Below, in pieces: positions 10,118 to 58,473 of a stretch of 64,000 nucleotides of DNA; the stretch's first letter is position 1, and each line of letters begins with the position of its first letter. The position numbers were made by a program, and so were the translations under genes. Origin of the DNA: a virus. Under the pieces are notes generated by a model that was not told where the DNA came from, searched no databases, and saw only the letters and a list, made by a program, of their open reading frames with translations. The DNA lies in IMG/VR virus record IMGVR_UViG_3300028571_002266, positions 96,001-160,000 of that record, one strand, 5' to 3'.

Positions 10118-10144
10118 GAAATCCGTCTTCCGTTAAAGGACGGA
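10118..10144 (+). repeat. GAAA-hairpin element, copy 1
   Basis: GAAA TCCGTCTT-CCGTTAA-AGGACGGA (8 bp, 1 G.U). Confidence 0.75.
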
Positions 10145-10160
10145 GCTAAGGGAATGAATT

Positions 10161-10439
10161 ATGTTAAGTCTCAAACAATTAGAAGATGTGTGTCTGAATT
10201 CAGATGCGACTTCTCAAAAATGTCGATATATTTGTCAAGATGAAGTTGACAAAAATAAGTTTTACTGCTTAAAACTTTCTGCTAAAGCTAGCAAAATAGA
10301 TAATGAAATTGAAAATTATATCAAAGTAATTAGCTTAAAAGGCAGAGATCCTTCTGATGAAAATTTACCATTAGGGGACAATTGTTCTGGTTATCCTTTT
10401 CTTAGGCATATCGAACAAGGTTACGACAAGAAAAATTAG
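10161..10439 (+). CDS. hypothetical Cys-containing protein
   Basis: 92-aa ORF, SD AAGGG. Confidence 0.7.
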   Translation: MLSLKQLEDVCLNSDATSQKCRYICQDEVDKNKFYCLKLSAKASKIDNEIENYIKVISLKGRDPSDENLPLGDNCSGYPFLRHIEQGYDKKN

Positions 10440-10936
10440 AGACTTTCTAGTCTCTCTCTGATTATCTGGTAGATATCCTTTCCTTTGTTTTCTTCAACAG
10501 CAGAGGAAAGGATATTTGCTTCTAGCTCATTACTGTTAAATCTTGCTATCTCTCTTACCATTAGTTCGTTCGTCTTTTCGCTGCTTATAGCTCTGTTTCG
10601 ATAGTAGAACAATAGCATTGCTATGACAACTAATGCGAAGATGAAGATTAGTGCTCCATCGCCTTGGATTATTTGAACTCCTGTGTTTTCGTTTCGTGAA
10701 ATTGCGCCGTTTATGTTGACTAGGCCGCTTTGTATTTCTTTCAGAAGACTATTTTGGGCTGATAGATCTTGCCTAGTCTTCATGAGTTCGGCCATTACCC
10801 CATTTTGGTTTGTGCGTATATCCTCTATTTTACCATTTTGATTTTGTATTTTGGGGTTGTTTCTTGGGTTGAAGTTTGCACATCCTACCAAGTTTAACAA
10901 GGTTGCGGCTGCAATAATCAACAAAAATTTGTACAT
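10436..10936 (-). CDS. Lipoprotein with coiled coil and an internal TM helix (spanin-like topology)
   Basis: SD GGAGG; MYKFLLIIAAATLLNLVG/C lipobox; TM ALIFIFALVVIAMLLFYY-RNR. Confidence 0.7.
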   Translation of the reverse strand: MYKFLLIIAAATLLNLVGCANFNPRNNPKIQNQNGKIEDIRTNQNGVMAELMKTRQDLSAQNSLLKEIQSGLVNINGAISRNENTGVQIIQGDGALIFIFALVVIAMLLFYYRNRAISSEKTNELMVREIARFNSNELEANILSSAVEENKGKDIYQIIRERLESL

Positions 10937-10955
10937 ACATCCTCCACAATATGTA

Positions 10956-10984
10956 TTTACAAGTGGGGAATTTCTTTGTACACT
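10956..10984 (+). promoter_or_regulatory. sigma70-type promoter
   Basis: TTTACA, 17 bp, TACACT; 7 nt before hairpin copy 2. Confidence 0.6.
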
Positions 10985-10991
10985 ATGCTGA

Positions 10992-11014
10992 GAAATCCGT
11001 TTCATGTTGACGGA
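10992..11014 (+). repeat. GAAA-hairpin element, copy 2
   Basis: GAAA TCCGTT-TCATGTT-GACGGA. Confidence 0.8.
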
Positions 11015-11039
11015 TGATCAACCCGCTGGAGGATTTGGC

Positions 11040-11450
11040 GTGGCTCAAGGCAAGGATGTTTTTTTCTTTGGTGATGAATTTGATGATGAAAATTCATCAA
11101 GTGAAAGCGCACAGATTGCAAATGAATTTAAGCAGAATGCTAATTCATTAGTTGTACATCATTTGTCAAATTACTTCAAGGACAAGATGTTGCACACAGG
11201 AGGAAATGTTCCTGATCAATTACTAAATAGTCATAAAAGAATATCTATGGTTTTGAACTACACTGTTTCTAATGGTGTAGATCATGCTCATGAAAGACTA
11301 GAATTTTCTGAGGGGAGAAACAATGATGATGAGAATTCAGAGCTTATCGTCACTGTTCTTCATGGAATAGCCAAAAGTGGTGTTCCGAAGGAATTTGCTG
11401 GTGGTATGCTTTGTCTGCACTTGGAATTAATAGAAGGGATAGATTTTTGA
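11040..11450 (+). CDS. hypothetical acidic protein
   Basis: GTG start 7 nt after GGAGG. Confidence 0.65.
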   Translation: MAQGKDVFFFGDEFDDENSSSESAQIANEFKQNANSLVVHHLSNYFKDKMLHTGGNVPDQLLNSHKRISMVLNYTVSNGVDHAHERLEFSEGRNNDDENSELIVTVLHGIAKSGVPKEFAGGMLCLHLELIEGIDF

Positions 11451-11761
11451 ATCTTGATTTATTATTGTTGTCAAGGCAATTTGAGACTGTCGAATTGCCG
11501 AAGGAAAAGAAATACCTCCTGAGATATTTTGAAAATCCAGTTCAGGAGGCTTTTCTTAAATATTTCTTTGTATTTGGTAATTATGTTAATTTTTGTGACC
11601 ACACTGGTCATTTCGTGCAGAAAAAATGGTTAAAACATCTGCATGAAAAATTAAAAACAATTGAAAAAGCCCACAAAGATGCCAGATCTAACTTTGACAT
11701 GGCTGGACTTGTTGAAATTGAAAAAGGTGAATTCAAATTCAGTCGTCATCTTCCTAAATAG
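11447..11761 (+). CDS. hypothetical protein
   Basis: TTG start coupled to the upstream stop. Confidence 0.65.
   Translation: MNLDLLLLSRQFETVELPKEKKYLLRYFENPVQEAFLKYFFVFGNYVNFCDHTGHFVQKKWLKHLHEKLKTIEKAHKDARSNFDMAGLVEIEKGEFKFSRHLPK
11755..11760 (+). promoter_or_regulatory. Putative late promoter TAAATA (also at 12927, 17887 minus, 22601, 23750, 24561, 25819 and 50985, each 4-6 nt before an ATG)
   Basis: Recurrent hexamer at fixed distance from start codons; core of the T4 late promoter TATAAATA. Confidence 0.65.
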
Positions 11762-11764
11762 TGT

Positions 11765-12007
11765 ATGGCACTAATATCATTCGGCGATTGGCGTAAAAAA
11801 TTTGATGAAGCAAGCCCTACTACAAGATTAAGGGCTGGAATTGAGGCGGGTAATTATCCCATGTCTGCTGGGGTGGCTATGTCTCGATCCACACCAAGCC
11901 CATCTTTTGTAAAGAAGGCAATTGAAGAATTAGGATCACCTGAACATCCTAAAAGGAAAAATAAGACTAAAAAGAAACGTAGGAATTCCAAGAAAAGGGA
12001 AAAATGA
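11765..12007 (+). CDS. Small basic protein, possible internal head protein
   Basis: MALISFGDW..FDEA N-terminus, K/R-rich tail. Confidence 0.7.
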   Translation: MALISFGDWRKKFDEASPTTRLRAGIEAGNYPMSAGVAMSRSTPSPSFVKKAIEELGSPEHPKRKNKTKKKRRNSKKREK

Positions 12008-12402
12008 TTTTTTTCAATGAATGGATGCAGGAAAGATTCGATGAGGCTAAAAAGTCTCGTCGCACCCCTGTTCCTCATTCTGATGTTGAAAAATGGATGC
12101 GTTCTTTAGAGCTTCTCAAGAAAGATCTTGAGGAATTGCAGAAAGCCAAGAAGAATGCTGCCCAAAGATTTGCTAGAGAAGCAAAAATCAAGAAGGAAAA
12201 AGAAAAGAAGGCTAAAGATGCCAAGAAGTTAAAAAAGAAAAAAGATTCAGAAATAGATAAAAAATCTGAAAAAGAACCTGAAGTTGAGAAGAAAGATAAA
12301 AAACCTGAAGTCAAAAAATATGATTCCAAGAAAAATGTTGTATCTGATAAGTTCAGACAGATTAAGAGTCAAAGGCGTAAAAATAATAAGCCTAGAGACT
12401 AA
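12004..12402 (+). CDS. Lys-rich protein, possible internal head protein
   Basis: MIFFNEWMQERFDEA N-terminus, highly charged. Confidence 0.7.
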   Translation: MIFFNEWMQERFDEAKKSRRTPVPHSDVEKWMRSLELLKKDLEELQKAKKNAAQRFAREAKIKKEKEKKAKDAKKLKKKKDSEIDKKSEKEPEVEKKDKKPEVKKYDSKKNVVSDKFRQIKSQRRKNNKPRD

Positions 12403-12452
12403 TTATTTTTAAGTTGGCAGTCTCCACTATAATTAAATAGCGGAGATAGATC

Positions 12453-12899
12453 ATGAGTACTGAAAATATTTGCAACGATGATTCCTTAGATCAATCTAAG
12501 GCAAAAAATGCCAGAGATGTTCTGAAAGGCATTATTGTTTCAGAATCAAATCTTGAAACATATTTAATTGCAGTAGCTGTTCATAAAGATTCATCCAAGA
12601 ATTTTATCAATAGAATAAGTTGTAAGAAGGGCATACCTCTTGATGGATATGTTTATGATGCTCAATCAGACAGTTATTTCATAGAATGCACTGATTTTTT
12701 GCATGTAGGGGTAATTCCTGTTTCTTTTGTTGCTACTGCTAAAGATTCTTATTTTTGGAAAATGAATATACCTTTGCCTGAAGCTGTCATTAAAAAGTAT
12801 TTGACTGAGATCCAAAAGAAGGATTTGAAAAACTTTAAGAGTCATTTTAGCTCTCAAGATTACATGATTAATTATGTTCAAATGGTTAATCCAAACTGA
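12453..12899 (+). CDS. hypothetical protein
   Basis: SD GGAG, 148 aa. Confidence 0.7.
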   Translation: MSTENICNDDSLDQSKAKNARDVLKGIIVSESNLETYLIAVAVHKDSSKNFINRISCKKGIPLDGYVYDAQSDSYFIECTDFLHVGVIPVSFVATAKDSYFWKMNIPLPEAVIKKYLTEIQKKDLKNFKSHFSSQDYMINYVQMVNPN

Positions 12900-12937
12900 A
12901 TTCATGTTTTTCTGGTTCTTCTGCCATAAATAATTTC

Positions 12938-13765
12938 ATGGCATGCTCATCTACTGGAATAGGCTGTACTACTACAACTGCAAAAAGTTGTCCTGACGAA
13001 TATGGATGCGTTAGCGGCGTATGTGCCGATTTCATCATTCGTAGGCATGATACTAAACCATCTTTCAAGGTTAAGATCGAAGATTGCGATGGACCTCTTG
13101 ATCTTACAGATCTTGTTCTTGAGGCCACAATGTGGGCCAAGGGGAAGCTTAAGGTTTCTCTTGATCAGAATGATTCAGTTATTGGTTTGGCTGATAATAT
13201 TGGCTTTAATCAAGTAATGCAGGGCGATGTGATTATCATGGATCAGGCTAGATTGCCTGAGAAGATGCTTGTTGTTGGATTTGATGAAGTAAATCGCCTC
13301 ATTCGTGTCCAGAGAGGTTATCATGGAACCCCAGTGCAAAACTGGAGACGTGGCACAGGATTGAAAATCATTAAGTTTTCTAACGCAACTGCTACAACTG
13401 AAATGTTGTATCAGGACATCATTAACATTGATGGAACAACGACTAAGGATGTTTTAGTCGATAGTTTTTTAATTTATGATTGGCAGAGTGAAGACACATG
13501 TCTTCCGGGTTGTTATTATTTGGAATTTAAGCTTTTGAAAATGGTGGTTTCTTTTGCTCTTGCTTATGATTCTTCTGTCCCAAGCAATCAAATTCCTAGT
13601 AATCTTTTGCCTGATGGAGTTATTCCGAGTTTTACTGATCCAAGTTTTATACCTTCCGATTTTGGTTGTTCTATGAATCCACTTGTTGAATGGATAAGAA
13701 GGTTTCCTATTGATAAAGAAGGCTTTATAATTAAAATAACGAATACTTTTACGGCTGATGATTGA
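12938..13765 (+). CDS. Putative virion structural protein (BppU-like Ig domain)
   Basis: FIIRRHDTKPSFKVKIED.DGPLDLT...YDWQ.EDT..PG.YYLEF; TAAATA upstream. Confidence 0.6.
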   Translation: MACSSTGIGCTTTTAKSCPDEYGCVSGVCADFIIRRHDTKPSFKVKIEDCDGPLDLTDLVLEATMWAKGKLKVSLDQNDSVIGLADNIGFNQVMQGDVIIMDQARLPEKMLVVGFDEVNRLIRVQRGYHGTPVQNWRRGTGLKIIKFSNATATTEMLYQDIINIDGTTTKDVLVDSFLIYDWQSEDTCLPGCYYLEFKLLKMVVSFALAYDSSVPSNQIPSNLLPDGVIPSFTDPSFIPSDFGCSMNPLVEWIRRFPIDKEGFIIKITNTFTADD

Positions 13766-13790
13766 CATCATAGAATTTAAGTCGTATTTT
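13762..13790 (+). promoter_or_regulatory. sigma70-type promoter of infC
   Basis: TTGACA, 17 bp, TATTTT. Confidence 0.5.
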
Positions 13791-13831
13791 TGTATAGGGT
13801 CTTTTTTATGTTGGAGCATGGATTTCACAAG

Positions 13832-14377
13832 ATGCAGCAAAACAAATTTCCTAGAGAGCGAAGCGAAGATCAAAACAGAGTTAACTGGCAGATAAGAGTG
13901 CCACAAGTTAGGGTTGTTCGTGAAGAAGAGCAACTTGGCATTATGGCTACTGATGAGGCAAGAAAACTTGCCATGGACAATGGTCTTGATCTAGTAGAGA
14001 TCGCTCCTACTGCGAAGCCTCCTGTTTGTAGGATTATGGATTATGGTCGTTATAAATACGAACTGAAAATCAAGAAAAAAGAAGCTGCAAAGAAGCAGCG
14101 TGAGTCACAAGTCCAGATAAAGGAAATTAGACTTCGTCCTGCTATTCAAGATCATGATATTGAAACAAAAATTAATCAGGCGAAGAATTTTCTTGAAGAA
14201 GGTTGTAAGGTTCAATTTTACCTTCAATTCAAGGGTTACCGTGAATTGAATCATAAAGAGCAGGGTTTCGCTGTTATGAAAAAAATTGTTGAAACAATGG
14301 AGCAATTTGGAGTCGTAGAGAAAAGACCTGCGATGGAAGGCAATCGAATTACATGCTTTTTTACTCCCAAAGTATAG
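13832..14377 (+). CDS. infC: Translation initiation factor IF3
   Basis: RVNWQIR..QVRVV, GLDLVEIAPTAKPPVCRIMDYGRYKYE, KEIRLRP.I..HD; exact start uncertain. Confidence 0.95.
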   Translation: MQQNKFPRERSEDQNRVNWQIRVPQVRVVREEEQLGIMATDEARKLAMDNGLDLVEIAPTAKPPVCRIMDYGRYKYELKIKKKEAAKKQRESQVQIKEIRLRPAIQDHDIETKINQAKNFLEEGCKVQFYLQFKGYRELNHKEQGFAVMKKIVETMEQFGVVEKRPAMEGNRITCFFTPKV

Positions 14378-14388
14378 TGGGAAACATC

Positions 14389-15597
14389 ATGATTGATAAT
14401 GTTTTGGCCAAAAAGGTCAACGATGTTCAGAATGAATTCAATCGTCGATTATATCATCATGTTCAACTAAGAGATAATTCATCAGGTCCTCCTCTTTTTT
14501 TTAGAATGATTCATGATTCCAATCAGGATCTTCTTGAATTTGCATTTGGTCATTTTGGTAAGAATCTTGGTGATTTGACTCATGTCCTAGACATGACTCA
14601 TCCAGACCTTGTAACCATATTTGATGGTAGTTTTTCAGACGAGCATATTTTTTCAAAGCAATGTATAGAATTTTTGGCGATGGCACAATATGCTAAAAAC
14701 AATGGAATGAGTCATATTTTCCCGTTATTGGGAAATCTTTTGATCAAAGAATCATTAGATAAAACTATTGTCAAAAAGATTGATGGTGCAAATTACAATA
14801 AATCTTATGTTCGTCTTATTCTCGATTCAGAAGAGAGAGATGCAATAAGATTTTGCAAGAAAATGCAAGTTATTGATCTTCAGGCCTTTTATAAAAAAGG
14901 CGAAGAATCATGGAATGCACAGCCAGATTCTTTTAAGCAATTTATCAGATATGATTCTGCATATATGCGTGAATTAAAGCAAGCTGAAAAGAAAATGAAG
15001 AGATATGAGGATTTGGGTTGTCAAAGTCTTGCTTCTGAAATTTCTAAGAGTATTGAAGTTTTCCGTGAAAACATGGAACAGGCATATTATGGATTCAATC
15101 GCATTACAATGACTAATGCTGCTATTATTTTAGCAAAATCAATGTCTTACAACTATAGTCCTTCCTGCCAGATTTCTGCTGGTGGGCATATAATGAAAAT
15201 TGAAGCTCAGGTTACAATAAATCGTTCATTCTTCAAAGATATTTATTTTGATTCTTCCCTTGTAGTTGACGCAACTTATCATTATGAGCCAAAAGTATAT
15301 CCTTTCCATGAACTTAAAGATGTGGCTTCGGATGAAGTTCTCCAAACGATAAAAATGCTTGAAAACTTCCCAGAAGCAAACAATAAACCAATATTCGATC
15401 ATTTTGGCGTTATTGTGCCTTCAATAGCTTATAGGAATAAAATGTTTAAGAATGAGAAAGGTATATTGCAGGATTATGCCGTTTTAGAAGATTGTCAAAA
15501 AGAAATGGACAAAATGTTCATCAGGAATAAATGTTTTTATCCGATAATTGTTGGCGAGAAAGATGGAAAATGCTTTTTTATATGTTATTGGACTTGA
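14389..15597 (+). CDS. hypothetical protein
   Basis: ~400-aa ORF; C-terminus YPIIVGEKDGKCFFICYW. Confidence 0.8.
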   Translation: MIDNVLAKKVNDVQNEFNRRLYHHVQLRDNSSGPPLFFRMIHDSNQDLLEFAFGHFGKNLGDLTHVLDMTHPDLVTIFDGSFSDEHIFSKQCIEFLAMAQYAKNNGMSHIFPLLGNLLIKESLDKTIVKKIDGANYNKSYVRLILDSEERDAIRFCKKMQVIDLQAFYKKGEESWNAQPDSFKQFIRYDSAYMRELKQAEKKMKRYEDLGCQSLASEISKSIEVFRENMEQAYYGFNRITMTNAAIILAKSMSYNYSPSCQISAGGHIMKIEAQVTINRSFFKDIYFDSSLVVDATYHYEPKVYPFHELKDVASDEVLQTIKMLENFPEANNKPIFDHFGVIVPSIAYRNKMFKNEKGILQDYAVLEDCQKEMDKMFIRNKCFYPIIVGEKDGKCFFICYWT

Positions 15598-15606
15598 GGT
15601 TGCGTA

Positions 15607-15858
15607 ATGATTTATAATTTAACGAAGGAAGAACTTCTGGAATTTGCACATGTGATTTACGAGCAATCTGTGAATGGTTATTTAGATCTGAAAGAAAGTA
15701 CTTGTCACAAGTTGCTAGTAAATTTTTTAGCAAACAAAAAAACTTCTATTCCAGATACTAATGTAAACATGAGTACTAATTTTGTGGATACAAATCAGAT
15801 TTTTAATTCTGATGTTTTCACGGTAACAGAAAGTTTCATCATCAGTCAAACTCAATGA
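15607..15858 (+). CDS. hypothetical protein
   Basis: SD GAGG. Confidence 0.65.
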   Translation: MIYNLTKEELLEFAHVIYEQSVNGYLDLKESTCHKLLVNFLANKKTSIPDTNVNMSTNFVDTNQIFNSDVFTVTESFIISQTQ

Positions 15859-15882
15859 GTTTGTAAATTTACGGGGATAATT

Positions 15883-16254
15883 ATGTCGAAGAGTAAGATT
15901 CTCACTCCTATGGGTTCAGTTTATGATTCTACTATTATTGGTGGTGGATCAAAAGTTCCTAAAATCAAATCTGTCAAGCCAACTGGTTCGCAGGTTCTAA
16001 TTGAATTCTTGACATCTCAGGAAATGCTTGGGACAAGTCTAGCTGTCAATGAAAAAACAGATTTGAAAGTTCCTTTGCAAGGCTATGTTCGCTCTGTAGG
16101 CCCTAACTTCAAATCATCAGATTATGGGTTTAATATAGGCGACAGAGTCACTGTTTCAGGTCCCGGTATTCATGTTCCTAATTGGGACAATATTCACCGT
16201 GATCGCTTCCTTATGGAACCTTCTTCAATTAAAGGCGTGATCATAGAAGAATGA
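15883..16254 (+). CDS. groES: GroES-like co-chaperonin
   Basis: VKPTGSQVLIE...QGYVRSVGP...IGDRV...LMEPSSIKGVI. Confidence 0.75.
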   Translation: MSKSKILTPMGSVYDSTIIGGGSKVPKIKSVKPTGSQVLIEFLTSQEMLGTSLAVNEKTDLKVPLQGYVRSVGPNFKSSDYGFNIGDRVTVSGPGIHVPNWDNIHRDRFLMEPSSIKGVIIEE

Positions 16255-17306
16255 AAGACTACTATGTCGTTCTAGGTATTCCTAGAAATGCATCTAAAGA
16301 AGATATTGTTAGGGCATACCGCAAGGGTGCCCAAACACATCATCCTGACCGTAATCCCGGCGACTCAGAAGCCGAAAAGAGATTTCGTGAAATTCAGGAA
16401 GCGTATGAGATATTAAACGATCCAGAAAAACGTGCTGAATATGACAGTGGAGGCCACTCCATGCATTTCAGGATGCGTGGATTTGAGGGTAATCCTTTCA
16501 GTGGTTCATTTGGTGATATTTTCCAGAATAGTTCTTATCGTGGAAGAAATCTAACAGTAAGATTAGAAATTGATTTATCAGAAGCTTATAACGGTTGTAA
16601 CAAAGAAATAATTATAAAAGTTAAAAATACATGCACGACATGTAAGGGTCAAGGCCAGATAAGTAATGAATCATGTGCTAATTGTAATGGTCAAGGATTC
16701 ACTAAAGTAAATAATGCTCCTTTTGAATTCAGAACAAATTGTCCAATTTGTAATGGTTTGGGAAAGATAAATCCAATCACATGCGTTGATTGCAGTGGTT
16801 CTGGAATGCTTTCTGGATATAAGGAAAAAAAGATACAGGTTCAAATTCCATGTGGAGTTGACAGTGGAATTAATCTGAGAATGCCCGGTCAAGGAGAGGA
16901 ATCAATCAGGGGAGGAAATCCCGGTGATTTAATTATTCATGTCTTGGTTAAAGAACATGAATATTTTCAAAGAGAAGGAATAGATCTTCTTGTTGATGTC
17001 CCTCTTTCCTTTTCCCAGTTGACATTTGGCTGTGAAGTCGAAATACCTACAATTTGCGACGAGACGCTTACTTGTAAAATTCCATTGGGAACACAAAGCC
17101 ACGCCAAGTTTAAGCTTGGAGGCAAAGGAATGAAACTTCCAAATGGTGTTTATGGTGATATGATTGTTACTGTAAAAGTTGAGATACCAAAAGGAATAAC
17201 AGGTGAATATAAAGAAGCAATTTTGAAACTACAGGATTTTGAAAAAAATAACTTTGGATCTAGAAGACAAAGATGGCAAAAAATTGTAGGCAAAAAAGAT
17301 AAATAA
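16251..17306 (+). CDS. dnaJ: Chaperone DnaJ
   Basis: DYY.VLG, HPD, four CxxCxGxG, GDL..HV, F.R.G.DL. Confidence 0.95.
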   Translation: MKDYYVVLGIPRNASKEDIVRAYRKGAQTHHPDRNPGDSEAEKRFREIQEAYEILNDPEKRAEYDSGGHSMHFRMRGFEGNPFSGSFGDIFQNSSYRGRNLTVRLEIDLSEAYNGCNKEIIIKVKNTCTTCKGQGQISNESCANCNGQGFTKVNNAPFEFRTNCPICNGLGKINPITCVDCSGSGMLSGYKEKKIQVQIPCGVDSGINLRMPGQGEESIRGGNPGDLIIHVLVKEHEYFQREGIDLLVDVPLSFSQLTFGCEVEIPTICDETLTCKIPLGTQSHAKFKLGGKGMKLPNGVYGDMIVTVKVEIPKGITGEYKEAILKLQDFEKNNFGSRRQRWQKIVGKKDK

Positions 17307-17326
17307 AAGTTAACTAGGAGAAGAAA

Positions 17327-17877: not shown

Positions 17878-17894
17878 TACTTATTTAGTTTACT

Positions 17895-19310: not shown

Positions 19311-20048
19311 ATGGCCACACAGAATAATTACAATCCACTTGAAGGCGACCGTCCAGAAATGACGGTAAAGCTTCACGAAAATTCTGACGATCATATTTCA
19401 ATTATTGTCGTCCATAGAGATAGACCTGAATATTTGAACATTTGCCTTCAGTCAATTGCAGTCACCAGCTTCAACAACAACTACGAAATCATCGTTGTCG
19501 ATAACGGAAGCGGCAAGGAATCACAAGAATTCCTTAAGGATATCGAAGGGGAAGTCAAGGTCGTAAAGAATGAGAAGAATCTTTACTGGTCAGCAGCTTG
19601 TAATAAAGGCGTACAGGCTGCTGATAAAAACAGTAAATATTTTATCTTCATGCATTGTGACATCGTAGTAATCAATCCTGCTTGGATTGACTTGCTTGTA
19701 AATGTGTCAGAAGCACAACATTCAGGATTCGTTGGGGTTGACACTCAATCCTATATGATGGGAAATCAAAAGGTTGATTTCCTCCAAGATCATATTACCT
19801 TGATAACAAGAGAAGCTTGGAGTGATATTGGTCCTTGGCCAGAACAACTTCCACAAATAGGCCCATCTTTCATTCTCACAATCAGAGCTCAACAGAAGGG
19901 CCATAAGCCTCAGATTATGAAAAATCCAATCATCCATCACTACAAGATTTTTAGCATGGATATTTCAGAATATGAAAGAATGACAGAGCAGGCGATGACA
20001 ACATTACCAAAACTAATGACTGATGTTTACTCAAAGGCTGTTTCATGA
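19311..20048 (+). CDS. Glycosyltransferase family 2
   Basis: ISIIVV..., YEIIVVDNGS, N..WSAACNKG, FMHCD. Confidence 0.85.
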   Translation: MATQNNYNPLEGDRPEMTVKLHENSDDHISIIVVHRDRPEYLNICLQSIAVTSFNNNYEIIVVDNGSGKESQEFLKDIEGEVKVVKNEKNLYWSAACNKGVQAADKNSKYFIFMHCDIVVINPAWIDLLVNVSEAQHSGFVGVDTQSYMMGNQKVDFLQDHITLITREAWSDIGPWPEQLPQIGPSFILTIRAQQKGHKPQIMKNPIIHHYKIFSMDISEYERMTEQAMTTLPKLMTDVYSKAVS

Positions 20049-27540: not shown

Positions 27541-27596
27541 TCAAAAAAAAACAGTCTTGTTTTGCCCCTCTGAAAAGTTTATGATGCTGCTTCATG

Positions 27597-27619
27597 GAAA
27601 TCCGTCCTCCGCTGACGGA
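27597..27619 (+). repeat. GAAA-hairpin element, copy 3
   Basis: GAAA TCCGTC-CTCCGCT-GACGGA, 11 nt after TTGTTT-17-TATGAT. Confidence 0.8.
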
Positions 27620-27635
27620 CGGAAGAGGTATGGTA

Positions 27636-43495: not shown

Positions 43496-43550
43496 TTAAA
43501 TTCTTATTTTGACTACAATTGATTTGTTCGTTAATTTTTATTTCTTCAAA

Positions 43551-43573
43551 GAAATTCGTCGTCTGTTGACGGG
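43551..43573 (+). repeat. GAAA-hairpin element, copy 4
   Basis: GAAA TTCGTC-GTCTGTT-GACGGG (2 G.U). Confidence 0.75.
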
Positions 43574-43834: not shown

Positions 43835-43879
43835 GTTGATTTTTGGGTTTTTTCGTCTATGATTCCTAGAGAAATCCGT
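43835..43879 (+). repeat. 45-bp promoter cassette, copy A
   Basis: Identical to 49160..49205 except T6 versus T7; TTGATT, 16 bp, TATGAT. Confidence 0.9.
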
Positions 43880-43898
43880 TCATCAGTTGGTGGGCGGA
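43871..43898 (+). repeat. GAAA-hairpin element, copy 5
   Basis: GAAA TCCGTTCATC-AGTT-GGTGGGCGGA (10 bp, 3 G.U). Confidence 0.8.
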
Positions 43899-48490: not shown

Positions 48491-49138
48491 ATGATTGCCA
48501 GCATCAACAGTGTTTTTTCCATTTTCAACAGATTGTTTTTTGATTCCAATCTCTCTGCTCCAGAGATTATTGTTGATGTGAGTAAAAAAGTTTCATTAAG
48601 GTGGCAATCTGACGAAAATATTATTGTTATGGGTTCTGGTTTTGTAAATATAAATAAAGAAATTATTTGCGTCAACTTGCTTCATGAAATGATACATTTA
48701 TCAAATTATAAAAATAAAGTTATAGATGTTAATGATAATCAGTATCATAACTCAAAATTTATGAAGCTTGCCGTAAAGTGCGGTTTGGTTGTTTATAAAG
48801 ATAAGAATCAAGGTTGGTCAAACACAACATTGGAAATTGATAACAGTTTTTCGACTAAAGATTTTAAGATTGAACTTGATAAAAATCAAAATCTCAAGTC
48901 AATTATTTCTAACATACATATTGATAATGAATTATTGAATGAGAACGAAAAGTCTTTAGTTTTAGCAATCAATAATTTGAAACCATCAAAAATTTTCTTC
49001 TTGAAATACGAATGTTCTTGTCCTCCTCCTCACAATAGTATCAGATCAGGTCGCCGACCAGATGGAAGTAATGCCCCAGATATAATTTGCGATAGGTGTA
49101 AAACAAAGTTTAATTGTGTTTCTCCTTTGTATGATTGA
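48491..49138 (+). CDS. SprT-like zinc metalloprotease
   Basis: LLHEMIH, YHNSKF..LA, C-terminal C.C...CDRC. Confidence 0.75.
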   Translation: MIASINSVFSIFNRLFFDSNLSAPEIIVDVSKKVSLRWQSDENIIVMGSGFVNINKEIICVNLLHEMIHLSNYKNKVIDVNDNQYHNSKFMKLAVKCGLVVYKDKNQGWSNTTLEIDNSFSTKDFKIELDKNQNLKSIISNIHIDNELLNENEKSLVLAINNLKPSKIFFLKYECSCPPPHNSIRSGRRPDGSNAPDIICDRCKTKFNCVSPLYD

Positions 49139-49156
49139 TTTTTTTGATCTTTTGGA

Positions 49157-49630
49157 TTAGTTGATTTTTGGGTTTTTTTCGTCTATGATTCCTAGAGAAA
49201 TCCGTCCGGCGTTGACGGTATGATTAGCATGAGGAATTTCCAGTTCTGCATTAGGATCAAATCTTTTGATGATTTTTTGAAAGATCAAGTATAGCATTGC
49301 TGTAACAATCGTGAATTCAAGGAAGGCGTTGACTAGATTTCCAATTTCAAGTTCAAGTCCTTTTGTTGGCGTAAAAACTAGATTGCGCCAGTTGCCATTA
49401 GTTGCTGATATCAAGTAATTGATGATTGGCATAACAAGTGACTCTGTCATAGAAGAAGCAAACTTTTGTGTTTGAGTTGCTAGAACAAGAGCTAAGGCCA
49501 TGACAAAGAAATTTTTCTTGTAAGCAAATTTCTTGTATTCTTCAAATTCTTCTTTGATTCTTTCGGATTTGATGAAATTTCTTTCTTCGTCATTCATTGT
49601 TTTGACCTTTTGGTTTAGTGGTGTTGACAT
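49157..49630 (-). CDS. mscL: MscL-family mechanosensitive channel, divergent
   Basis: EYKKFA.K.N...MA.A.VL......F.SS....LVMPII...LEIGNLVNAFLEF.IV. Confidence 0.7.
   Translation of the reverse strand: MSTPLNQKVKTMNDEERNFIKSERIKEEFEEYKKFAYKKNFFVMALALVLATQTQKFASSMTESLVMPIINYLISATNGNWRNLVFTPTKGLELEIGNLVNAFLEFTIVTAMLYLIFQKIIKRFDPNAELEIPHANHTVNAGRISLGIIDEKNPKIN
49160..49218 (+). repeat. Promoter cassette copy B plus GAAA-hairpin copy 6
   Basis: TTGATT, 17 bp, TATGAT, 7 nt, GAAA T CCGTC-CGGCGTT-GACGG. Confidence 0.85.
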
Positions 49631-49652: not shown

Positions 49653-49709
49653 ATTTGTGCTTCTGCTTTTTTGGAAACAAGTTACTCTTTGACGGAATGA
49701 GGTTAAGAC

Positions 49710-50927: not shown

Positions 50928-50940
50928 TTTATGAAATTAA

Positions 50941-50978
50941 AGCCGTCCCATACAAAATATGGGACGGTTTTATTTTTT
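50941..50978 (+). terminator. Intrinsic terminator
   Basis: AGCCGTCCCATA-CAAAA-TATGGGACGGTT followed by a T-rich run. Confidence 0.85.
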
Positions 50979-50995
50979 CGTGCATAAATACATTA

Positions 50996-51298: not shown

Positions 51299-51303
51299 AT
51301 TTT

Positions 51304-51534
51304 CTATTTAGTATCATCAGTTATTGCTGAGATCTGGCCTTTGGGGGCACGGGGGTCAATTTCCATGGCGTTTGCTGCGAGTTCCTTACGCAGCACTGTC
51401 ACACTCTTATTGGCTTCAATCCCGATCCTGACCTTGTTGCGGTTATCGATCCTCACAACCGTCAGGACTATGTCCTGCATACCGGGGACCTGTAGAATGA
51501 TCTGTTCGTCCTTCTTGCGACTAAGTACCAGCAT
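51304..51534 (-). CDS. csrA: Carbon storage regulator CsrA
   Basis: MLVLSRK..EQI...I..TVV.I...KVRIGIEA...V.VLR.EL; SD AAGGA. Confidence 0.92.
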   Translation of the reverse strand: MLVLSRKKDEQIILQVPGMQDIVLTVVRIDNRNKVRIGIEANKSVTVLRKELAANAMEIDPRAPKGQISAITDDTK

Positions 51535-51716
51535 TTAACTTCCTTTCTTTGCTTTCCATGTGTCCTCTGACACAATATTAAGCGAGTAAGTTTGCTGAAA
51601 TTTTACAATTTTTACTTTTTTTTCTGCAACATGGCTTTACAACAAAAAAAAATTCGTATATTAATTACTTACTGGCTTTCATTTACTAACACGCCAGTAT
51701 ATTAAGGAGCAAAGAC

Positions 51717-52157: not shown

Positions 52158-52193
52158 TTTTTACGATTTGAAACAATAAACTTGATTTAGCAC

Positions 52194-52222
52194 ACCCCGT
52201 TCACATACGAACGGGGTTTTTT
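52194..52222 (+). terminator. Intrinsic terminator
   Basis: ACCCCGTTC-ACATAC-GAACGGGGT followed by a T run. Confidence 0.85.
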
Positions 52223-52229
52223 GATTTTG

Positions 52230-52329
52230 ATGGCTGTTGCATAGCGGACAACACTTAATCTTTGCTTCTGCATAAACAGATACCGGGTCAGGAAAGTGTG
52301 AAAACGACCTCCATTATCTGACCAGCCAT
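52230..52329. ncRNA. Candidate structured RNA of unknown class
   Basis: ATGGCTG/CAGCCAT closing stem, GGTCAG/CTGACC, ACACTT/AAGTGT (crossing) and TCTG/CAGA, in a GC-richer intergenic island. Confidence 0.35.
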
Positions 52330-52414
52330 TAATATATAATAGTTGTTTCTTGTTAAATTAATCAAGAATTACTGTATAATGATTTTGGCAAGTTGAAACT
52401 AAGGAGTTTGATTC

Positions 52415-53683
52415 ATGGCGAAAAAGAAGGGTCCTTTCTGTGACTACTGTGGAATGTCTAGTTCTCAGGCAGGGATGTTAGTTGAAGGTCCAAATATCAG
52501 CCGTGAACAGAATGGTAGACCTGCTGGGAGCAAGGTTTACATATGTGCAGAGTGCATCGAAATTTGTCAAACCATGGTGAGTAAGAACAGCAAAGCTGCA
52601 AACATGAGTGCAAAAAAGATGATTCCTTCTCCAAAGCAAATTGTTGAACATCTTGACAAGAGCATCATTGGCCAAGATAAGGCCAAGCGTTGTTTGGCAG
52701 TTGCTGTCACTAATCATTATAAAAGATTGACTCAGAATTTTTGCATCACTGATGATAATCCATTCTCTGATGTTAATATCGAAAAGTCAAATATCCTGTT
52801 GATAGGGCCAACTGGATCAGGAAAGACTTCTTTGGCTAGGACTCTTGCAAAGATTCTTGAAGTTCCATTCGCAATTGGCGATGCAACAACCCTTACAGAA
52901 GCTGGGTATGTTGGAGAAGATGTCGAGAATTTAATTCTTAAGATTGTAAGGGAAGCTGATTTTAACATTGAATTGGCTCAGACTGGAATTATTTTCCTTG
53001 ATGAGATCGATAAGATTGGTAAGACAAGCCAAAGTGTTAGTATCACTCGTGATGTATCAGGGGAAGGAGTTCAACAGGCTCTACTGAAAATGCTTGAAGG
53101 TACTGTTTGCAATGTGCCTCCCGGTGGTGGCCGTAAACATCCAGAGCAGCAGTTCCTTCAGGTTGATACTACTAACGTACTATTCATCTGTGGTGGTGCT
53201 TTTAATGGCCTAGAAGACATTATTAAGCGTAGAATAGGTAAAAATCAAATGGGGTTCGGAAGTGCTTCATCGAATCTTGATGAAGAATGGATTCTTCAGC
53301 ATGTCACTCAGGATGACCTTATCGAGTTTGGAATGATCCCAGAACTAGTTGGTCGTCTTCCTGTTGTGACACCTTTGAAAGGTCTTGACGAAGAAAGCCT
53401 TATGAAGATTCTTACCGATCCTAAAGATGCTCTCGTGAAACAATATCAGAAAATGTGTTGGCAAGATAATGTAAAGTTGTCATTCACTGACGAAGCTTTA
53501 CGAGAAATTGCCAAGAAAGCCTTGAGTGTTGGAACTGGAGCTCGTGGACTAAGGACTGTCATGGAAGAATTCATGATTGACATCATGTACCATTTGACAG
53601 ATCATGGTGGAGAAACAGTAGTAGTTACCAAGGATGTCGTTTTGGGTCAAACTGCTCTTTTTCAAAAAAGCCTAGCAGCTTAA
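52415..53683 (+). CDS. clpX: ATP-dependent Clp protease ATP-binding subunit
   Basis: CDYC..CAEC Zn-binding domain, [32 protein letters not shown] loop, GARGLR. Confidence 0.97.
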
Positions 53684-53697
53684 ATTTTTAAGATCTA

Positions 53698-53726
53698 TTG
53701 ACCTTTTGGTTCATTAGGATTATCAT
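53698..53726 (+). promoter_or_regulatory. sigma70-type promoter
   Basis: TTGACC, 17 bp, TATCAT; 7 nt before hairpin copy 7. Confidence 0.75.
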
Positions 53727-53733
53727 TATTTTG

Positions 53734-53785
53734 GAAATCCGCCTTCCGTTGATGAAACGGAGGGCGGAGGGCGGAGGGCGGAGGG
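53734..53785 (+). repeat. GAAA-hairpin copy 7 fused to a (CGGAGGG)x4 tandem repeat
   Basis: GAAA TCCGCCTTCCGTT-GATGA-AACGGAGGGCGGA (13 bp); heptamer x4 at 53758-53785. Confidence 0.85.
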
Positions 53786-53908
53786 TGTGATGTTTCGATG
53801 AATATCAGCTAAAATATTGTCTTTTTGGCTGTCAATGTAACTATCATAATAAATGAAAACTAATTTTCTTGTTTTGAGAGACTTCACATGCCAAGAGGGT
53901 TGAGCTAA

Positions 53909-54529
53909 ATGAGTTATATTGTTTCTACTTTTTTCAATGAGAACAGTTGGAATAAGTTTGGCCTCAATTGGGTCCGTAATACCAAATCTGCATCACTCGA
54001 TGCTCTAATTATAGGCAAAGATTTGCCAGAAGAAGCAATCACAAAGATTGCTGAACTTAATTTTCGTTATGTTCCTGTTTTGAATAAATTCAAGACAGAT
54101 TGTAATGTGGATTACACTTTGGTTCAAAATTTAGAAAAAAATCAAAGATGTCTTTGGACTCAGCCTGAGATTTTGCCTAAAGCTGGAATTTATTCTAGAA
54201 ATACGTCATCTGTTGACGGAGAATCTGATTTGATTTGTGGATTAAGTTCTTTTAATGTGCAGGATTTGACTCAGTCTGTAGTCAATTTATATGACAGGGC
54301 TGCAATGATAGAATCTTTGAAGCAGAAAATTGAAAATGTACATGGCAAATACTTGTCTAGCGATTATATGCTTGGAACATATGATTTTTGGAATGGATTT
54401 TTTGGTTGCAAGGCCTACCTCTTTGAAAGAGGATATCTACAAGGTTCTGTGCAAAGCGATGATCTTGTCTTGAATTTCTTTGTTTCCTTCGCTAATTCTT
54501 TTTCTTTACAAATAAAGGATTACTCTTAA
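53909..54529 (+). CDS. hypothetical protein
   Basis: 206-aa ORF containing hairpin copy 8. Confidence 0.7.
   Translation: MSYIVSTFFNENSWNKFGLNWVRNTKSASLDALIIGKDLPEEAITKIAELNFRYVPVLNKFKTDCNVDYTLVQNLEKNQRCLWTQPEILPKAGIYSRNTSSVDGESDLICGLSSFNVQDLTQSVVNLYDRAAMIESLKQKIENVHGKYLSSDYMLGTYDFWNGFFGCKAYLFERGYLQGSVQSDDLVLNFFVSFANSFSLQIKDYS
54198..54220 (+). repeat. GAAA-hairpin element, copy 8 (intragenic)
   Basis: GAAA TACGTC-ATCTGTT-GACGGA. Confidence 0.7.
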
Positions 54530-54530
54530 A

Positions 54531-54665
54531 ATGATTTACAGCACACTATCTCATTTAGGTTCTTTTGTGTTTTTTATGCTAAGTGCTTTTGTAATTTGCA
54601 CTTTCATTATTGCTATTACAAGAACTAATGAAGATGAGACAACAAGAATTAAGGAAGATGAATGA
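54531..54665 (+). CDS. 44-aa membrane peptide
   Basis: One TM helix; stop overlaps the next ATG (ATGA). Confidence 0.55.
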   Translation: MIYSTLSHLGSFVFFMLSAFVICTFIIAITRTNEDETTRIKEDE

Positions 54666-55090
54666 GCGTATTGCTTTTTGTTTACGGAACTCTAAAAATA
54701 GGGTTTACTAGAAATTATGCTTTGCAGGGACAGATCTATTTGGGAACTGCTAAAACAAAGCCTGAATATAGCATGCATGCAACAGGAGGATATCCCGCCC
54801 TTCTCAATAAAAAACTTGCCGAACAAAATAATATCAAGGCAGATAAATCTATTTTTGGTGAAATTTGGGAAGTTGATGAGGATTGTCTTGTAAGATTGGA
54901 TAAAATAGAAGGCGTAGAAATTAATTTGTTTGAAAGATCAACCATAAATATCGAAGAGTTTACTCTTAGTCGTTTGCCTATTGACAAAACAGTTTGGAAT
55001 GATGTACAAGAAAATAAAGCTTATGCTTATTTGTACAAACAGCCGATAAATGGAGCGGCATGCTGTGGATCTTTTTGGCATAGAAAGTAA
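54662..55090 (+). CDS. Gamma-glutamylcyclotransferase (AIG2-like)
   Basis: LFVYGTLK.G, YPAL, GE.WEV...L.RLD.IEG. Confidence 0.9.
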   Translation: MSVLLFVYGTLKIGFTRNYALQGQIYLGTAKTKPEYSMHATGGYPALLNKKLAEQNNIKADKSIFGEIWEVDEDCLVRLDKIEGVEINLFERSTINIEEFTLSRLPIDKTVWNDVQENKAYAYLYKQPINGAACCGSFWHRK

Positions 55091-55098
55091 GGAATTTT

Positions 55099-55488
55099 AT
55101 GGATTATCTCTTTCTCTTATCAATATTCATCGCAGGATTTACTTTAGCTACATTTATATTTTTGTTTTATCGCATCTATATGCTGAGACACATTAAATTA
55201 ATTCAATCTCAATATTTGCTTGAAGATCTCGAATTAGCAACTAAAGAACAACTTTTGACTGAATTTCGCAATAGACCAAACAATTCTTATATTCTCTTAA
55301 TGCCAATGTCCAGCAAAGAAGAAATGGGAATGAAAATTGAGTTGAATAGCTTCAAGCCTTATGATAGCGTTAATCTTTTGCATCTGGCCACAACCCTTAT
55401 TTTCAGAGAAATGAAAAATAAAGGTATGTCAGTCCCAGAATTACCTGCAATAGATGTTCCTTCGACAGAAGACGGATCACAACGGTAA
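55099..55488 (+). CDS. membrane-anchored hypothetical protein
   Basis: SD AAGGA, N-terminal TM helix. Confidence 0.7.
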   Translation: MDYLFLLSIFIAGFTLATFIFLFYRIYMLRHIKLIQSQYLLEDLELATKEQLLTEFRNRPNNSYILLMPMSSKEEMGMKIELNSFKPYDSVNLLHLATTLIFREMKNKGMSVPELPAIDVPSTEDGSQR

Positions 55489-55516
55489 TCATCATTTGTC
55501 GCTTTAAGAGGTTAAG

Positions 55517-56659
55517 ATGGAACCCAAAAGGTCTAGAATCTGCTTGAATACTATGGTCGCCAATGAAGCCCATGTAATCAAAAGGATGCTTGAATCTTGT
55601 TATAATTATATTGACTATTGGATTATTCAGGACAATGGCTCCACTGACGGAACACAAGAAATAATTCGTAACTTCTTTCAGGATAAGAACATACCCGGAT
55701 TTCTTTATGAAATTTCTTGGCAGTATCCCGGATATAATCGTGATCATGCTTTACAAACAGCTTTGCAAGCTTCACACAACTGTGATTGGATATTGAGAAT
55801 CGACGCTGATGAGATTTTGCAGGTCGATGATGAACTTGATTGGAAGCTAATCAACGATACAACTATCGAAAGCTTCAATATAGTTGCGCTGCAAGGTCAA
55901 TGCAGTTATCAACGCTGTTGGCTATGGAACTCTAAGCTTCCTTGGAAATTCAAGCATGATAAGCGTCATGAAACCATTTATATGGACAAAGATAATATAG
56001 GCGAAGGATTCCAGAGGGTTTCTCTTTCTCCAAAATTCAAACACTTAATCATGGGTGACGGCAGGACTTGGTTCAATCCCACTAAGTTTTATTCCGATGC
56101 TTTAGAGATAGAGAAGGATCTTTTGTCTGACAGTAAGATGTCTAATGACACATATCATCTTTTCTATATTGGCAAAAGCTATAGAGATGCAGTTCTTGAT
56201 CCAAGAACAAAGTGGCCTTTTGGAACAAATCATTTACATGAATGTGCAAGAAGAGCTATATTCTTTTTTGAGCAATATTTGAATGTTGTTCATCAATACT
56301 CAGAAACTAAAAAGCCGAAGCACATGGATGAAATGGCCTACATGGTTCTAGTTTTCATGGCAGAGTGCCAAAGAATAATCAAAGATGATGAGGCTGCTAT
56401 TTCATTATTGATGCAGGCAGAGCCATTTTGCCCAGAAAGAAACGAACATCTTCTTGAAATTGCACAAATTTATTCTGATCATGGTCAAAGAATAGGTTTG
56501 CTTAACGCAACAACAAGACTTGTTGGTCAATCAAGAAAGAATCCATTCCCAAGATTTTGTTTCTTCATAAATAATGAAGCTTATTACGACACAGGAAAAT
56601 ATGTGAAACACCTTCACAGTATTGCTTGTTCTTTCAACAATATTTTGCCAGTAGATTGA
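55517..56659 (+). CDS. GT2 glycosyltransferase with TPR-like C-terminus
   Basis: ICLN.MV.NE..VI.R.LES, D.GSTDGT, NR..AL, DADE, HE, FY.GKSYRD. Confidence 0.85.
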   Translation: MEPKRSRICLNTMVANEAHVIKRMLESCYNYIDYWIIQDNGSTDGTQEIIRNFFQDKNIPGFLYEISWQYPGYNRDHALQTALQASHNCDWILRIDADEILQVDDELDWKLINDTTIESFNIVALQGQCSYQRCWLWNSKLPWKFKHDKRHETIYMDKDNIGEGFQRVSLSPKFKHLIMGDGRTWFNPTKFYSDALEIEKDLLSDSKMSNDTYHLFYIGKSYRDAVLDPRTKWPFGTNHLHECARRAIFFFEQYLNVVHQYSETKKPKHMDEMAYMVLVFMAECQRIIKDDEAAISLLMQAEPFCPERNEHLLEIAQIYSDHGQRIGLLNATTRLVGQSRKNPFPRFCFFINNEAYYDTGKYVKHLHSIACSFNNILPVD

Positions 56660-57133
56660 TTAGAATGCCTTTCTAAGCTCATTGATTGTTCTCTCAGCAT
56701 CAACGTGTAATATTCCAGTTCCTCCCCAGTCATGCCATTCTTGGATGTTACTGGGGAGATCGTCTATTAGTATTTTTCCTGAACTAGCGTAATATTTTTT
56801 CAACTTGCTTTTCTCAACACAGATAATTCTATTTCCAGAAACGCCAATATGATTCTGGCACCATATATTTTTACCTTCACATGCTTCTTTTGACTCTGAA
56901 CATGATGTCAGGATATAAGGTTTATATTCTTTGATAAAATCCCATAGGATTTGACAGTCTTTTGTTTCAGGTAGATTTGCCCAAAATTCAATTTTTTCTT
57001 TGCTTGTGAGCTTGTCGATATAACTGTTGAAGTAGTCTATGAATGTTTCTCCGTTGCTAAGATGAAATCCATATATATCACTTAGTTTTCCAGCTAAATC
57101 AACAAGAACACCATCTAAATCACAATATATCAT
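56660..57133 (-). CDS. HAD-family 5'(3')-deoxyribonucleotidase-like protein
   Basis: IYCDLDGVL, FW.NLP, ILT, GK..W, ILIDD...NI.EW...GG.GILH. Confidence 0.85.
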   Translation of the reverse strand: MIYCDLDGVLVDLAGKLSDIYGFHLSNGETFIDYFNSYIDKLTSKEKIEFWANLPETKDCQILWDFIKEYKPYILTSCSESKEACEGKNIWCQNHIGVSGNRIICVEKSKLKKYYASSGKILIDDLPSNIQEWHDWGGTGILHVDAERTINELRKAF

Positions 57134-57220
57134 AATTTTTTTTTATTCTCTGTTTACAAATTACCTTAAATTCTATAAGTTATTATAGGATAAAGCAAAT
57201 TTTTGAAAGGAATCGATGAG

Positions 57221-57481
57221 ATGAAAAACCCATTAGGCAAAAACGTCGATCTTAGACTATGTGTGGTCGATAGCACATATGACAATGAATTGGACGAATG
57301 GATGATTGATAAGATTTCTGCAACGGATTCAGTCTTGAAAATTGCAAGTCCAAGTCAAGAAGAAATATGCAGCAAGGTTAAGCTTTGCAGGAAGAAGCAT
57401 ATTGCTTATGTTTCCAAGAATGACATATTTGTTGTACATCGTGATACCAAACAGCCAATAGTATGCTTGAAAAAAGTTTGA
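57221..57481 (+). CDS. hypothetical protein
   Basis: ORF of ~86 aa. Confidence 0.65.
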   Translation: MKNPLGKNVDLRLCVVDSTYDNELDEWMIDKISATDSVLKIASPSQEEICSKVKLCRKKHIAYVSKNDIFVVHRDTKQPIVCLKKV

Positions 57482-57520
57482 TTTTTTATCTGAAGAGTTT
57501 TCTGAAATAACTGAGATTCG

Positions 57521-58360
57521 ATGCGAATAAGAGATGTGGAGATCAGAGTCACAGACGGAGAACTGGGAATGAACGTCAAGAAAGTTTGGTTTTACATCCA
57601 TCGTTTCGATGCCGCTAAAACTGCACATGTAGCCAGAATAATTCTCAAAAAGTACCCTTTCATCAAGCCTACTGTTGAAGGTGACAAGTGCATCCTTTTG
57701 TGCAGCGATATGGGTAAAGATCCATCTTCTTGGGTCATTGAGAAGCTTGTTGAAAATAAAAGGTTTTTGGGGCATTTCCATTCAGAAAGCAAGAGATATA
57801 ATGCCGAAAGGCATGAATATCTGACAGAAATGCATCATGCTGCTGTCTGTCGTTTTGGTTTTTTTGACTTATATGACGTTCCTGACGATTTAGAATTTGC
57901 CAATTTTATTGTTGGGAAGTTACAAAACACTCTTTCAGGTCAGCCAGCTTATCTTGCTGAAGAGAATGCTTCTATCAGCAGTGGTCATAAATTGAATTTT
58001 TCAAATGAGATTAAAGTGGAAAGGAGGAAGATGTATATCTATAACCTCGTGAGATTCCACAATTACTCTAAGGAATTGGCAACATTAACAATTGACCGAA
58101 AGTTTCCAGAATGGAAAGATATAAAAATCGAGAAGAAAAAGATCAGTCCTCGTGAGGAAAGAAAAAGGGCTAGAGATGAGTACAAGAAAGCTTTGGAACT
58201 TGCCAAGAAGTTAGCTTTCATGTCGGCGAAAGATAGAAAGAATCATCTCAGTCAAAATAACAACTTGTTTGAATTTTTACTTTTCGTTAAGCTTTGCAAG
58301 GTAAAGGGCAGAGAGTGGATTTTGGAAAATGTTGGACCTGTTCCCGGAATTGTCGAGTAA
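57521..58360 (+). CDS. hypothetical protein
   Basis: 279-aa ORF. Confidence 0.75.
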   Translation: MRIRDVEIRVTDGELGMNVKKVWFYIHRFDAAKTAHVARIILKKYPFIKPTVEGDKCILLCSDMGKDPSSWVIEKLVENKRFLGHFHSESKRYNAERHEYLTEMHHAAVCRFGFFDLYDVPDDLEFANFIVGKLQNTLSGQPAYLAEENASISSGHKLNFSNEIKVERRKMYIYNLVRFHNYSKELATLTIDRKFPEWKDIKIEKKKISPREERKRARDEYKKALELAKKLAFMSAKDRKNHLSQNNNLFEFLLFVKLCKVKGREWILENVGPVPGIVE

Positions 58361-58450
58361 AAAATTAGGTCTGTGATTGCTTAGACCTGTCTTAATTTGA
58401 TGGGTTTAAGCAATCTGACCTTCTTTGAAGGCGGCTTATAGTTACTTTAA

Positions 58451-58473
58451 GAAATCCGTTTTCTTTTGATGGA
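58451..58473 (+). repeat. GAAA-hairpin element, copy 9
   Basis: GAAA TCCGTT-TTCTTTT-GATGGA (2 G.U), 8 nt after TATAGT. Confidence 0.65.

Follow-up and report, generated by a model that had tools for sequence, protein, structure and literature searches.

Solitary Cas12i crRNA handles derived from a phage's own CRISPR array are dispersed among its genes and may serve as decoy leaders

Cas12i2, the best match for the effector described below, cuts its precursor CRISPR RNA (crRNA; CRISPR, short palindromic repeats, clustered and regularly interspaced) before A(-23), leaving a 23-nucleotide (nt) handle made of a 6-nt tail and a stem-loop, and requires A-23, G-22 and A-21 (PMC7567891). Type V-I systems carried by phages are already known (PMC7162821). 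Repeat-derived units outside arrays have also been described, namely viral solitary repeat units (SRUs) and RNA anti-CRISPRs (Racr), of which RacrVA1-3 provide a type V precedent for decoys (PMC10651486), and the crRNA-like regulators CreR and crlRNA together with standalone type V-A repeats (10.1101/2023.03.10.532045; 10.1101/2023.03.03.530964). Here we analyzed a 64,000-nt stretch of virus DNA (the window), corresponding to C1:96001-160000 of a 168-kb IMG/VR record (G000) that is about 39% complete, in which a short hairpin element recurs on the + strand.

Sequence comparison establishes these scattered hairpins as solitary Cas12i crRNA handles derived from the phage's own array: the element is exactly the 3' 23 nt, that is the mature crRNA handle, of the array's 36-nt repeat. 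A consensus-pattern search of the record returned 13 further matches at C1:88023-88888, which are the repeats of a CRISPR array next to cas12i (Table 1). The encoded protein is homologous to Cas12i2 over its length and intact, so that the element has, beside the matching repeat, a cognate effector retaining D/E/D of RuvC as well as K and HH of the RNase. A covariance model trained on the array repeats alone recovered 8 window copies, all on the + strand. Similarly, the consensus with at most 2 mismatches found 8 matches in the window, where shuffled sequence would yield 0.01, with the copy at 43871 as a register-shifted ninth. The nine copies listed by a previous sequence-only reading of this DNA are all present on the + strand, as is its variant at 49674, and the element is indeed commoner than in shuffled sequence; the inventory overlooked the decayed copy at 58409 and, outside the window, the 13 array copies and the copy in the cas12i leader. 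The conserved unit begins one base before the start noted then, with a conserved A (true start 10117 and so on). That reading had further proposed an undescribed family, a proposal superseded by the identity with the type V-I repeat; an Rfam scan of the window returned one tRNA only and matched the element to no family. Two look-alikes were rejected, a perfect CCGTC-N7-GACGG at 19349, which is conserved coding sequence, and an inverted one at 55481, which is at background level. Directly upstream of the cas12i locus, the clade shares PrkA, DUF444 and SpoVR genes (C1:76974-83485), SpoVR with a LAGLIDADG intein.

Table 1. Handle copies, their source locus and phage genes in the window. Positions are window positions unless prefixed C1 (record positions). 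ORF, open reading frame; SD, Shine-Dalgarno sequence.
Feature	Position	Strand	Description
Handle insertion	10112..10143	+	32 nt: few upstream repeat bases and re-registered handle, 8-bp stem
Handle	10991..11013	+	+1 of TTTACA-17-TACACT promoter; 26 nt before GTG of ORF 11040
Handle	27596..27618	+	about +4; followed by ACGG duplication and SD of amidoligase gene
Handle	43550..43572	+	without strong promoter; 15 nt before ORF 43588
Handle	43870..43896	+	at +1; re-registered, 10-bp stem containing SD of AAA ATPase gene 43921
Insertion of about 80 nt (boundary approximate)	49138..49218	+	promoter copied from 43870 locus and intact handle 49196-49218 at +1
Decayed handle	49673..49695	+	5' arm broken; 14 nt before parB-like gene; same site intact in a relative
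Handle	53733..53785	+	at +1; fold-back extension to 11-13 bp stem; variable 7-nt tandem expansion
Handle in coding sequence	54197..54219	+	most of 8-codon in-frame insertion in ORF 53909-54529
Decayed handle (extra)	58409..58431	+	carries -35 box of 58450 promoter
Handle	58450..58472	+	+1/+2; two G-U pairs; no ORF directly behind
CRISPR array	C1:88009-88888		13 repeats of 36 nt, spacers mostly 35-40 nt; 7-8 kb upstream of window
cas12i	C1:84741-87881		1046 aa, precedes array; best PDB match Cas12i2, E 1e-101
Half handle in cas12i leader	C1:84707-84729		first base at predicted +1/+2 of sigma70-like promoter
bS21 gene	9076-9363
Peptide deformylase gene	9623-10117
IF3 gene	13790-14377
MscL gene	49157-49630	-
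CsrA gene	51304-51534	-

The copies occupy about 10 sites, at distances of up to 66 kb from the array, and the record's first 84 kb yielded none. For the copies at 10991, 43870, 49196, 53733 and 58450, as well as the half copy in the cas12i leader, the first handle base lies at the predicted +1/+2 of a sigma70-like promoter, and these promoters score in the top 1% of non-coding positions. Those at 43870 and 49196 share one copied sequence and are not independent cases, and the promoter hexamers at 10991 are identical to those of the cas12i promoter. The spacings reported from sequence alone hold, with the G of GAAA 7 nt after the -10 box at 10992, 43871, 49197 and 53734; at 58451 the distance is 8 nt and at 27597 it is 11 nt. 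They support the view that the element is a directional hairpin in RNA, sited at the 5' ends of transcripts and read on the sense strand; transcripts beginning at the first base of the handle would start like mature crRNAs. The heptamer TGGAATT is likewise present 7 nt before 10118 and 54198, but its suggested role as a promoter for a phage sigma factor is unsupported: it is coding sequence, relatives without the element have other codons there, and 23 occurrences were counted on this strand. The remaining placements are between cistrons (10117 and 43550) or within a gene (54197), and the copy at 53733 has no long ORF directly downstream.

Copies were found in three lineages at 65-73% median protein identity. 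Over about 25 sites in these lineages the handle tail is always 5' of the downstream gene, minus-strand genes included, and unweighted matching that allowed up to 6 mismatches gave 19 copies, compared with none when 1.74 Mb of reversed sequence was scanned; no antisense copies above background were found. One lineage (G010) is joined to a Cas12i-plus-array locus by 99.9% overlaps, and the loops of dispersed copies tend to resemble the array of the same lineage. Only background counts were obtained in G008, which is without cas12i at the locus, in G007, where Cas12i is dead and an array is missing, and in five near-complete distant phages. Comparison of these sequences thus establishes the origin of the element from the phage's own Cas12i repeat, its repeated insertion, its sense orientation and its co-occurrence with Cas12i arrays. 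Most sites are private to a single lineage and the sets of downstream genes differ by lineage. For example, the IF3 gene is preceded by a handle in G010 only, the 10117 site is an empty allele in an 86% relative, and the 27596 copy has a varied version in an 87% relative and is absent from more distant ones. A hairpin also precedes the counterpart of ORF 43588 in two other lineages. At 54197, 11 more distant homologs are without the 8-codon insertion. One 90% protein cluster contains both filled and empty alleles, and a full-length repeat copy occurs in the relative G026.

Other Cas12i loci and handles were seen among the compared sequences. A Cas12i with 39% identity and intact catalytic residues (L087:8631-11857) has an intact handle-like hairpin directly before its SD and no array in the 244 nt of sequence behind the gene. 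At the same locus in G007 (L225:16390-19420, IMGVR_UViG_3300047481_002095) lies a full-length Cas12i of 1011 aa with RuvC D>N and E>T changes, intact RNase residues, no array and a terminator behind, which is predicted to be naturally nuclease-dead and array-less; no such handles were found in 57 kb of this phage, where a de novo repeat search was also empty. A 91%-identical cas12i-array cassette stands in a different gene context at L086:7646-10876, behind genes for an HSP90-like ATPase and DnaJ, and at L088:642-3872, which indicates that the cassette moves between genomes. Perfect solitary handles precede start codons at L090:202-224 (155-kb contig Ga0247844_1000122) and L115:771-793, on contigs with no detected similarity to the phage in the compared DNA. 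No further Cas12i was found in GenBank phages or other IMG/VR contigs by searches of which one had missed the diverged protein of G007, detected later.

Behind six window copies a start codon follows at 14-26 nt, inside the stretch that Cas12i would hold as guide, and at 3-32 nt behind most copies in relatives. This arrangement raises the possibility of a Cas12i regulon, in which the effector would bind the leader handle and either take up the 20-31 nt behind it, with SD and start codon, as guide or cut polycistrons, turning down chosen early genes and perhaps cas12i itself. The hairpin before the SD of cas12i (intact in L087, a half copy here), the full-length RuvC-dead Cas12i of G007 and the engineered precedent in which repeat fragments in untranslated regions (UTRs) make Cas12a degrade mRNA (PMC9943656) all fit. 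However, the downstream genes are not a conserved set, no ORF directly follows three of the +1 copies, and any insertion would land near a start where intergenic gaps are short. The phage with the dead Cas12i is without handles, and handles remain in strains that have lost cas12i. We regard a regulon as unlikely.

We then considered whether the handle is read by Cas12i. G-22, A-20 and G-15 are retained in all nine copies of the sequence-only inventory. In the copy within a coding sequence (54197), 4/23 bases differ from a 98.8% relative (p = 0.014 versus the rest of the gene). None of its 14 alleles encodes an intact handle or keeps AGA motif and stem together, one group having lost the terminal pair and another the AGA motif, which indicates at least two independent routes. 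In a 90% relative this copy lost G-22, A-21 and G-15, partly via synonymous changes, and in the same relative the +1 copies hold perfect stems, with changed loops: at 49196 the handle is kept with an array-type loop and the guide deleted, and at 58450 the stem has another loop and a diverged guide. The erasure of the in-gene copy is an indirect sign of recognition by Cas12i. Stem departures remain G-U pairs in 11/14 cases, in a set chosen partly by stem similarity. Within this lineage, stem C>T changes number 10 against no G>A (neutral rates 0.30 vs 0.17-0.23), an excess with p of about 0.004-0.012 by estimate, two re-registered copies excluded. A G-U bias had been proposed before; 9 G-U pairs over the nine copies and better folding of the sense strand in 7/9 agree with it, but the exact figure of 10 of 12 was not reproduced. 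An early mismatch excess at positions -12 to -9 (31/67) was discarded, as it was inflated by a single reference and not significant in the corrected test.

The fixed 7-nt spacing, the variable loop, the missing compensatory pairs and the position just behind +1 would also suit an operator in DNA (CCGTC-N7-GACGG) bound by a dimeric regulator of the phage, or an antitermination site of the nut/put type. Against both stand the identity to a crRNA handle including its one-sided tail, the sense-strand G-U bias, the co-occurrence with Cas12i arrays and the absence of an Rfam match, which make such a site hardly credible. Antitermination, an R-loop primer and ribbon-helix-helix, CsrA or ParB-like partners, all suggested previously, found no support, Cas12i being the obvious partner.

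Several right junctions show GG, CGG or ACGG microhomology. In a sister lake-phage population (L093, L240, L241 and L243 vs L110 and L112) cas12i is polymorphic: three different microhomology deletions independently remove it with most of the array and leave the cas12i promoter joined to one to three terminal repeats; in one case the repeat remnant is joined at about +1, and in L243 the promoter runs straight into a terminal repeat. These deletions show that the repeat recombines by microhomology. RNA-templated insertion is unsupported, since neither cas1 nor a reverse transcriptase was found in the available 39% of the genome. Directly behind handles, the 3' arm has been expanded by slippage and fold-back (ACGG, 7-nt units) at 53756-53785 and 27619-27622 and at L075:4987-5010; these expansions differ between strains, and one occurs within the array of L112. 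The insertion at 10112 lies behind the deformylase stop codon and ahead of the SD of ORF 10161. The handle at 49196 runs antisense to the 3' end of mscL with a 7-nt duplication, and the MscL C-terminus is extended through this insertion in 7/7 cluster members.

The copies could accordingly be unselected scars or hairpins independent of Cas12i, array fragments inserted by microhomology repair that survive where they are harmless (no cut at +1, a cut tolerated between cistrons) and then drift or are retained as stabilizing 5' hairpins. High turnover, slippage and fold-back extension, the microhomology junctions, the L243 fusion of promoter and terminal repeat, the lack of stem-over-loop conservation in an unbiased test and the copy at 53733, which holds a long stem rather than handle geometry, speak for this account. 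On the other hand, antisense copies should do no more harm than sense ones but do not exceed background, and the precision of the first base at +1, the G-U-preserving bias of stem changes and the empty first 84 kb also speak against it. We consider scars somewhat unlikely.

Three insertions, at 10117, at 49196 (both directly after TTG) and at one site in a relative, directly follow TTN. They recall the homing of TnpB for its transposon (10.1101/2023.11.20.567912): a handle between a TTN protospacer adjacent motif (PAM) and its flank would constitute a mini-guide aimed at co-infecting relatives whose allele is empty; Cas12i would cut that allele and repair would copy the insertion. The handles would then be minimal gene-less RNA-guided selfish elements, with a CRISPR effector back in the ancestral role of TnpB. 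Homing would account for the sense orientation, and the presence of filled and empty alleles within one protein cluster fits it. However, TTN precedes 17% of non-coding positions by chance, so about 3/7 informative sites are not significant; the other informative sites have GG-type junctions, the 49196 guide is deleted in a relative, and the PAM is assumed from Cas12i2, array spacers having yielded no protospacer beyond a single 30/38 match. Spread by homing is quite improbable.

The putative guides behind the handles have no credible target in the available genome sequence (best 16/20, none with PAM and a long seed), and they are not conserved, being deleted or diverged while handles persist. 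The guide at 10991 has a 9-nt seed with a TTC PAM at C1:84628-84636 (-), some 35 nt upstream of the -35 box of cas12i. Such a match within a 260-nt region has P = 0.0034 for any one of 10 guides when shuffled, the region being chosen post hoc. Some copies might on this basis direct Cas12i to partial matches near promoters as CreR does in type V-A, with the 10991 guide repressing cas12i itself, and a match shorter than 14 bp would lead to binding but not to cleavage. Most of the seed is ancestral flank and it is not kept in an 86% relative, and no other guide beats its shuffles, with targets sought in 39% of the genome; we hold DNA-level regulation of this kind to be very unlikely. Some 120 array spacers were also compared, those of one array with the phage collection and those of another with 23 related records; neither there nor in the compared loci did spacers yield protospacers, except for one 30/38 match. 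Spacer 12 of a sister array (L017) matches several repeats in long genes at C1:3631-7592 (28-30/38, TTC upstream at some), a weak sign that relatives are targeted. Near-identical spacers (32/38) occur in opposite orientation at C1:88760-88797 and L280:14424 (-).

Given this evidence, we consider it most likely (probability about 0.4) that the handles are Cas12i-loading decoy leaders acting on the phage's own Cas12i or on that of a sister phage. Host sigma70 RNA polymerase would make early transcripts that start, like a mature crRNA, at the first base of the handle, and other early transcripts would contain it internally, where Cas12i could cut it free; both steps are drawn from promoter scores and Cas12i2 biochemistry. 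Cas12i would load these leaders with the following UTR as a target-less guide, and the abundant early RNAs would titrate either the enzyme of a co-infecting sister phage whose handle is the same or the costly nuclease that the phage itself encodes. Transcription of the handles is expected from their promoters, and loading by Cas12i is rather probable. Any strong promoter or cistron boundary would serve, so that sites would be gained and lost by lineage, and copies harming a gene would be mutated away. We ranked decoys first because they fit the +1 placement, the many copies, the unconserved guides and the unconserved gene set.

Several observations weigh against decoys. They would weaken the phage's own Cas12i, and targeting of sister phages rests on the single 30/38 spacer match. 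Most copies also lie just before start codons, as in a regulon. The AGA motif and all five pairs are kept in 4/11 window copies (10991, 43550, 49196 and 58450), partly kept at 27596 and 54197 and lost at 10117, 43870, 53733, 49673 and 58409, and among these 11 copies three are re-registered and two decayed. Two-sided compensatory stem changes number 0/14, and with detection free of bias, stems show no greater conservation than loops (0.86 vs 0.81, p = 0.3). If Cas12i does load these leaders, the phage furnishes its early transcripts with sites at which an effector encoded by a phage can dock. RNA anti-CRISPRs would then extend from phage-versus-host conflict to phage-versus-phage conflict or self-restraint or, alternatively, a natural class 2 effector would act on mRNA, which until now has been achieved mostly by engineering. 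The filled, empty, decayed and cas12i-deleted alleles in public metagenomes form a ready test panel, which shows the handle changes that a Cas12i2-like nuclease tolerates.

Compared with Cas12i2, the phage handle has the same 23 nt, 6-nt tail and stem-loop, with the same bases at -23, -22, -21, -20, -15 and -14, and the system likewise combines a homologous effector with intact catalytic residues, a huge phage and no cas1 in the available part. In contrast, base -12 is C in the phage arrays and U in Cas12i2, and the handles stand alone at about ten sites, fused to ordinary transcripts. CreR and crlRNA are also degenerate repeats outside an array, with one possible seed near a cas promoter here; the present copies differ in not lying beside the cas locus and in having no second repeat and no conserved spacer-target pair. 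TnpB homing shares a scaffold followed by native flank and, at three sites, an insertion splitting TTN from flank, but here there are no transposase or element ends, most junctions are without a PAM and the guide is not conserved. We found no paper on dispersed Cas12i handles, most subscription papers being beyond the reach of our search. The closest likeness is to viral SRUs and Racr, which are also single repeat-derived intergenic units, often behind a promoter and with no conserved target. The copies belong to a viral genome and stand apart from arrays and cas genes (except that 58409 and 58450 are 41 nt apart), and sigma70 promoters are predicted for five of them. They cover 23-28 of the 36 repeat nt, below the 90% or more used by SRUFinder, and the matching system is the phage's own: the phage host was not identified, and among GTDB genomes there were 19 single matches and no array with the phage's repeat. 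They differ further in being many, in consisting of the mature handle only, in mostly leading mRNAs, with one inside a gene, and in that inhibition is only predicted. Judged by sequence, the multi-copy layout is an unusual version of known viral solitary repeats rather than a new family; what is new in this genome is the birth-and-decay series of copies and the repeated erasure of the one within a gene.

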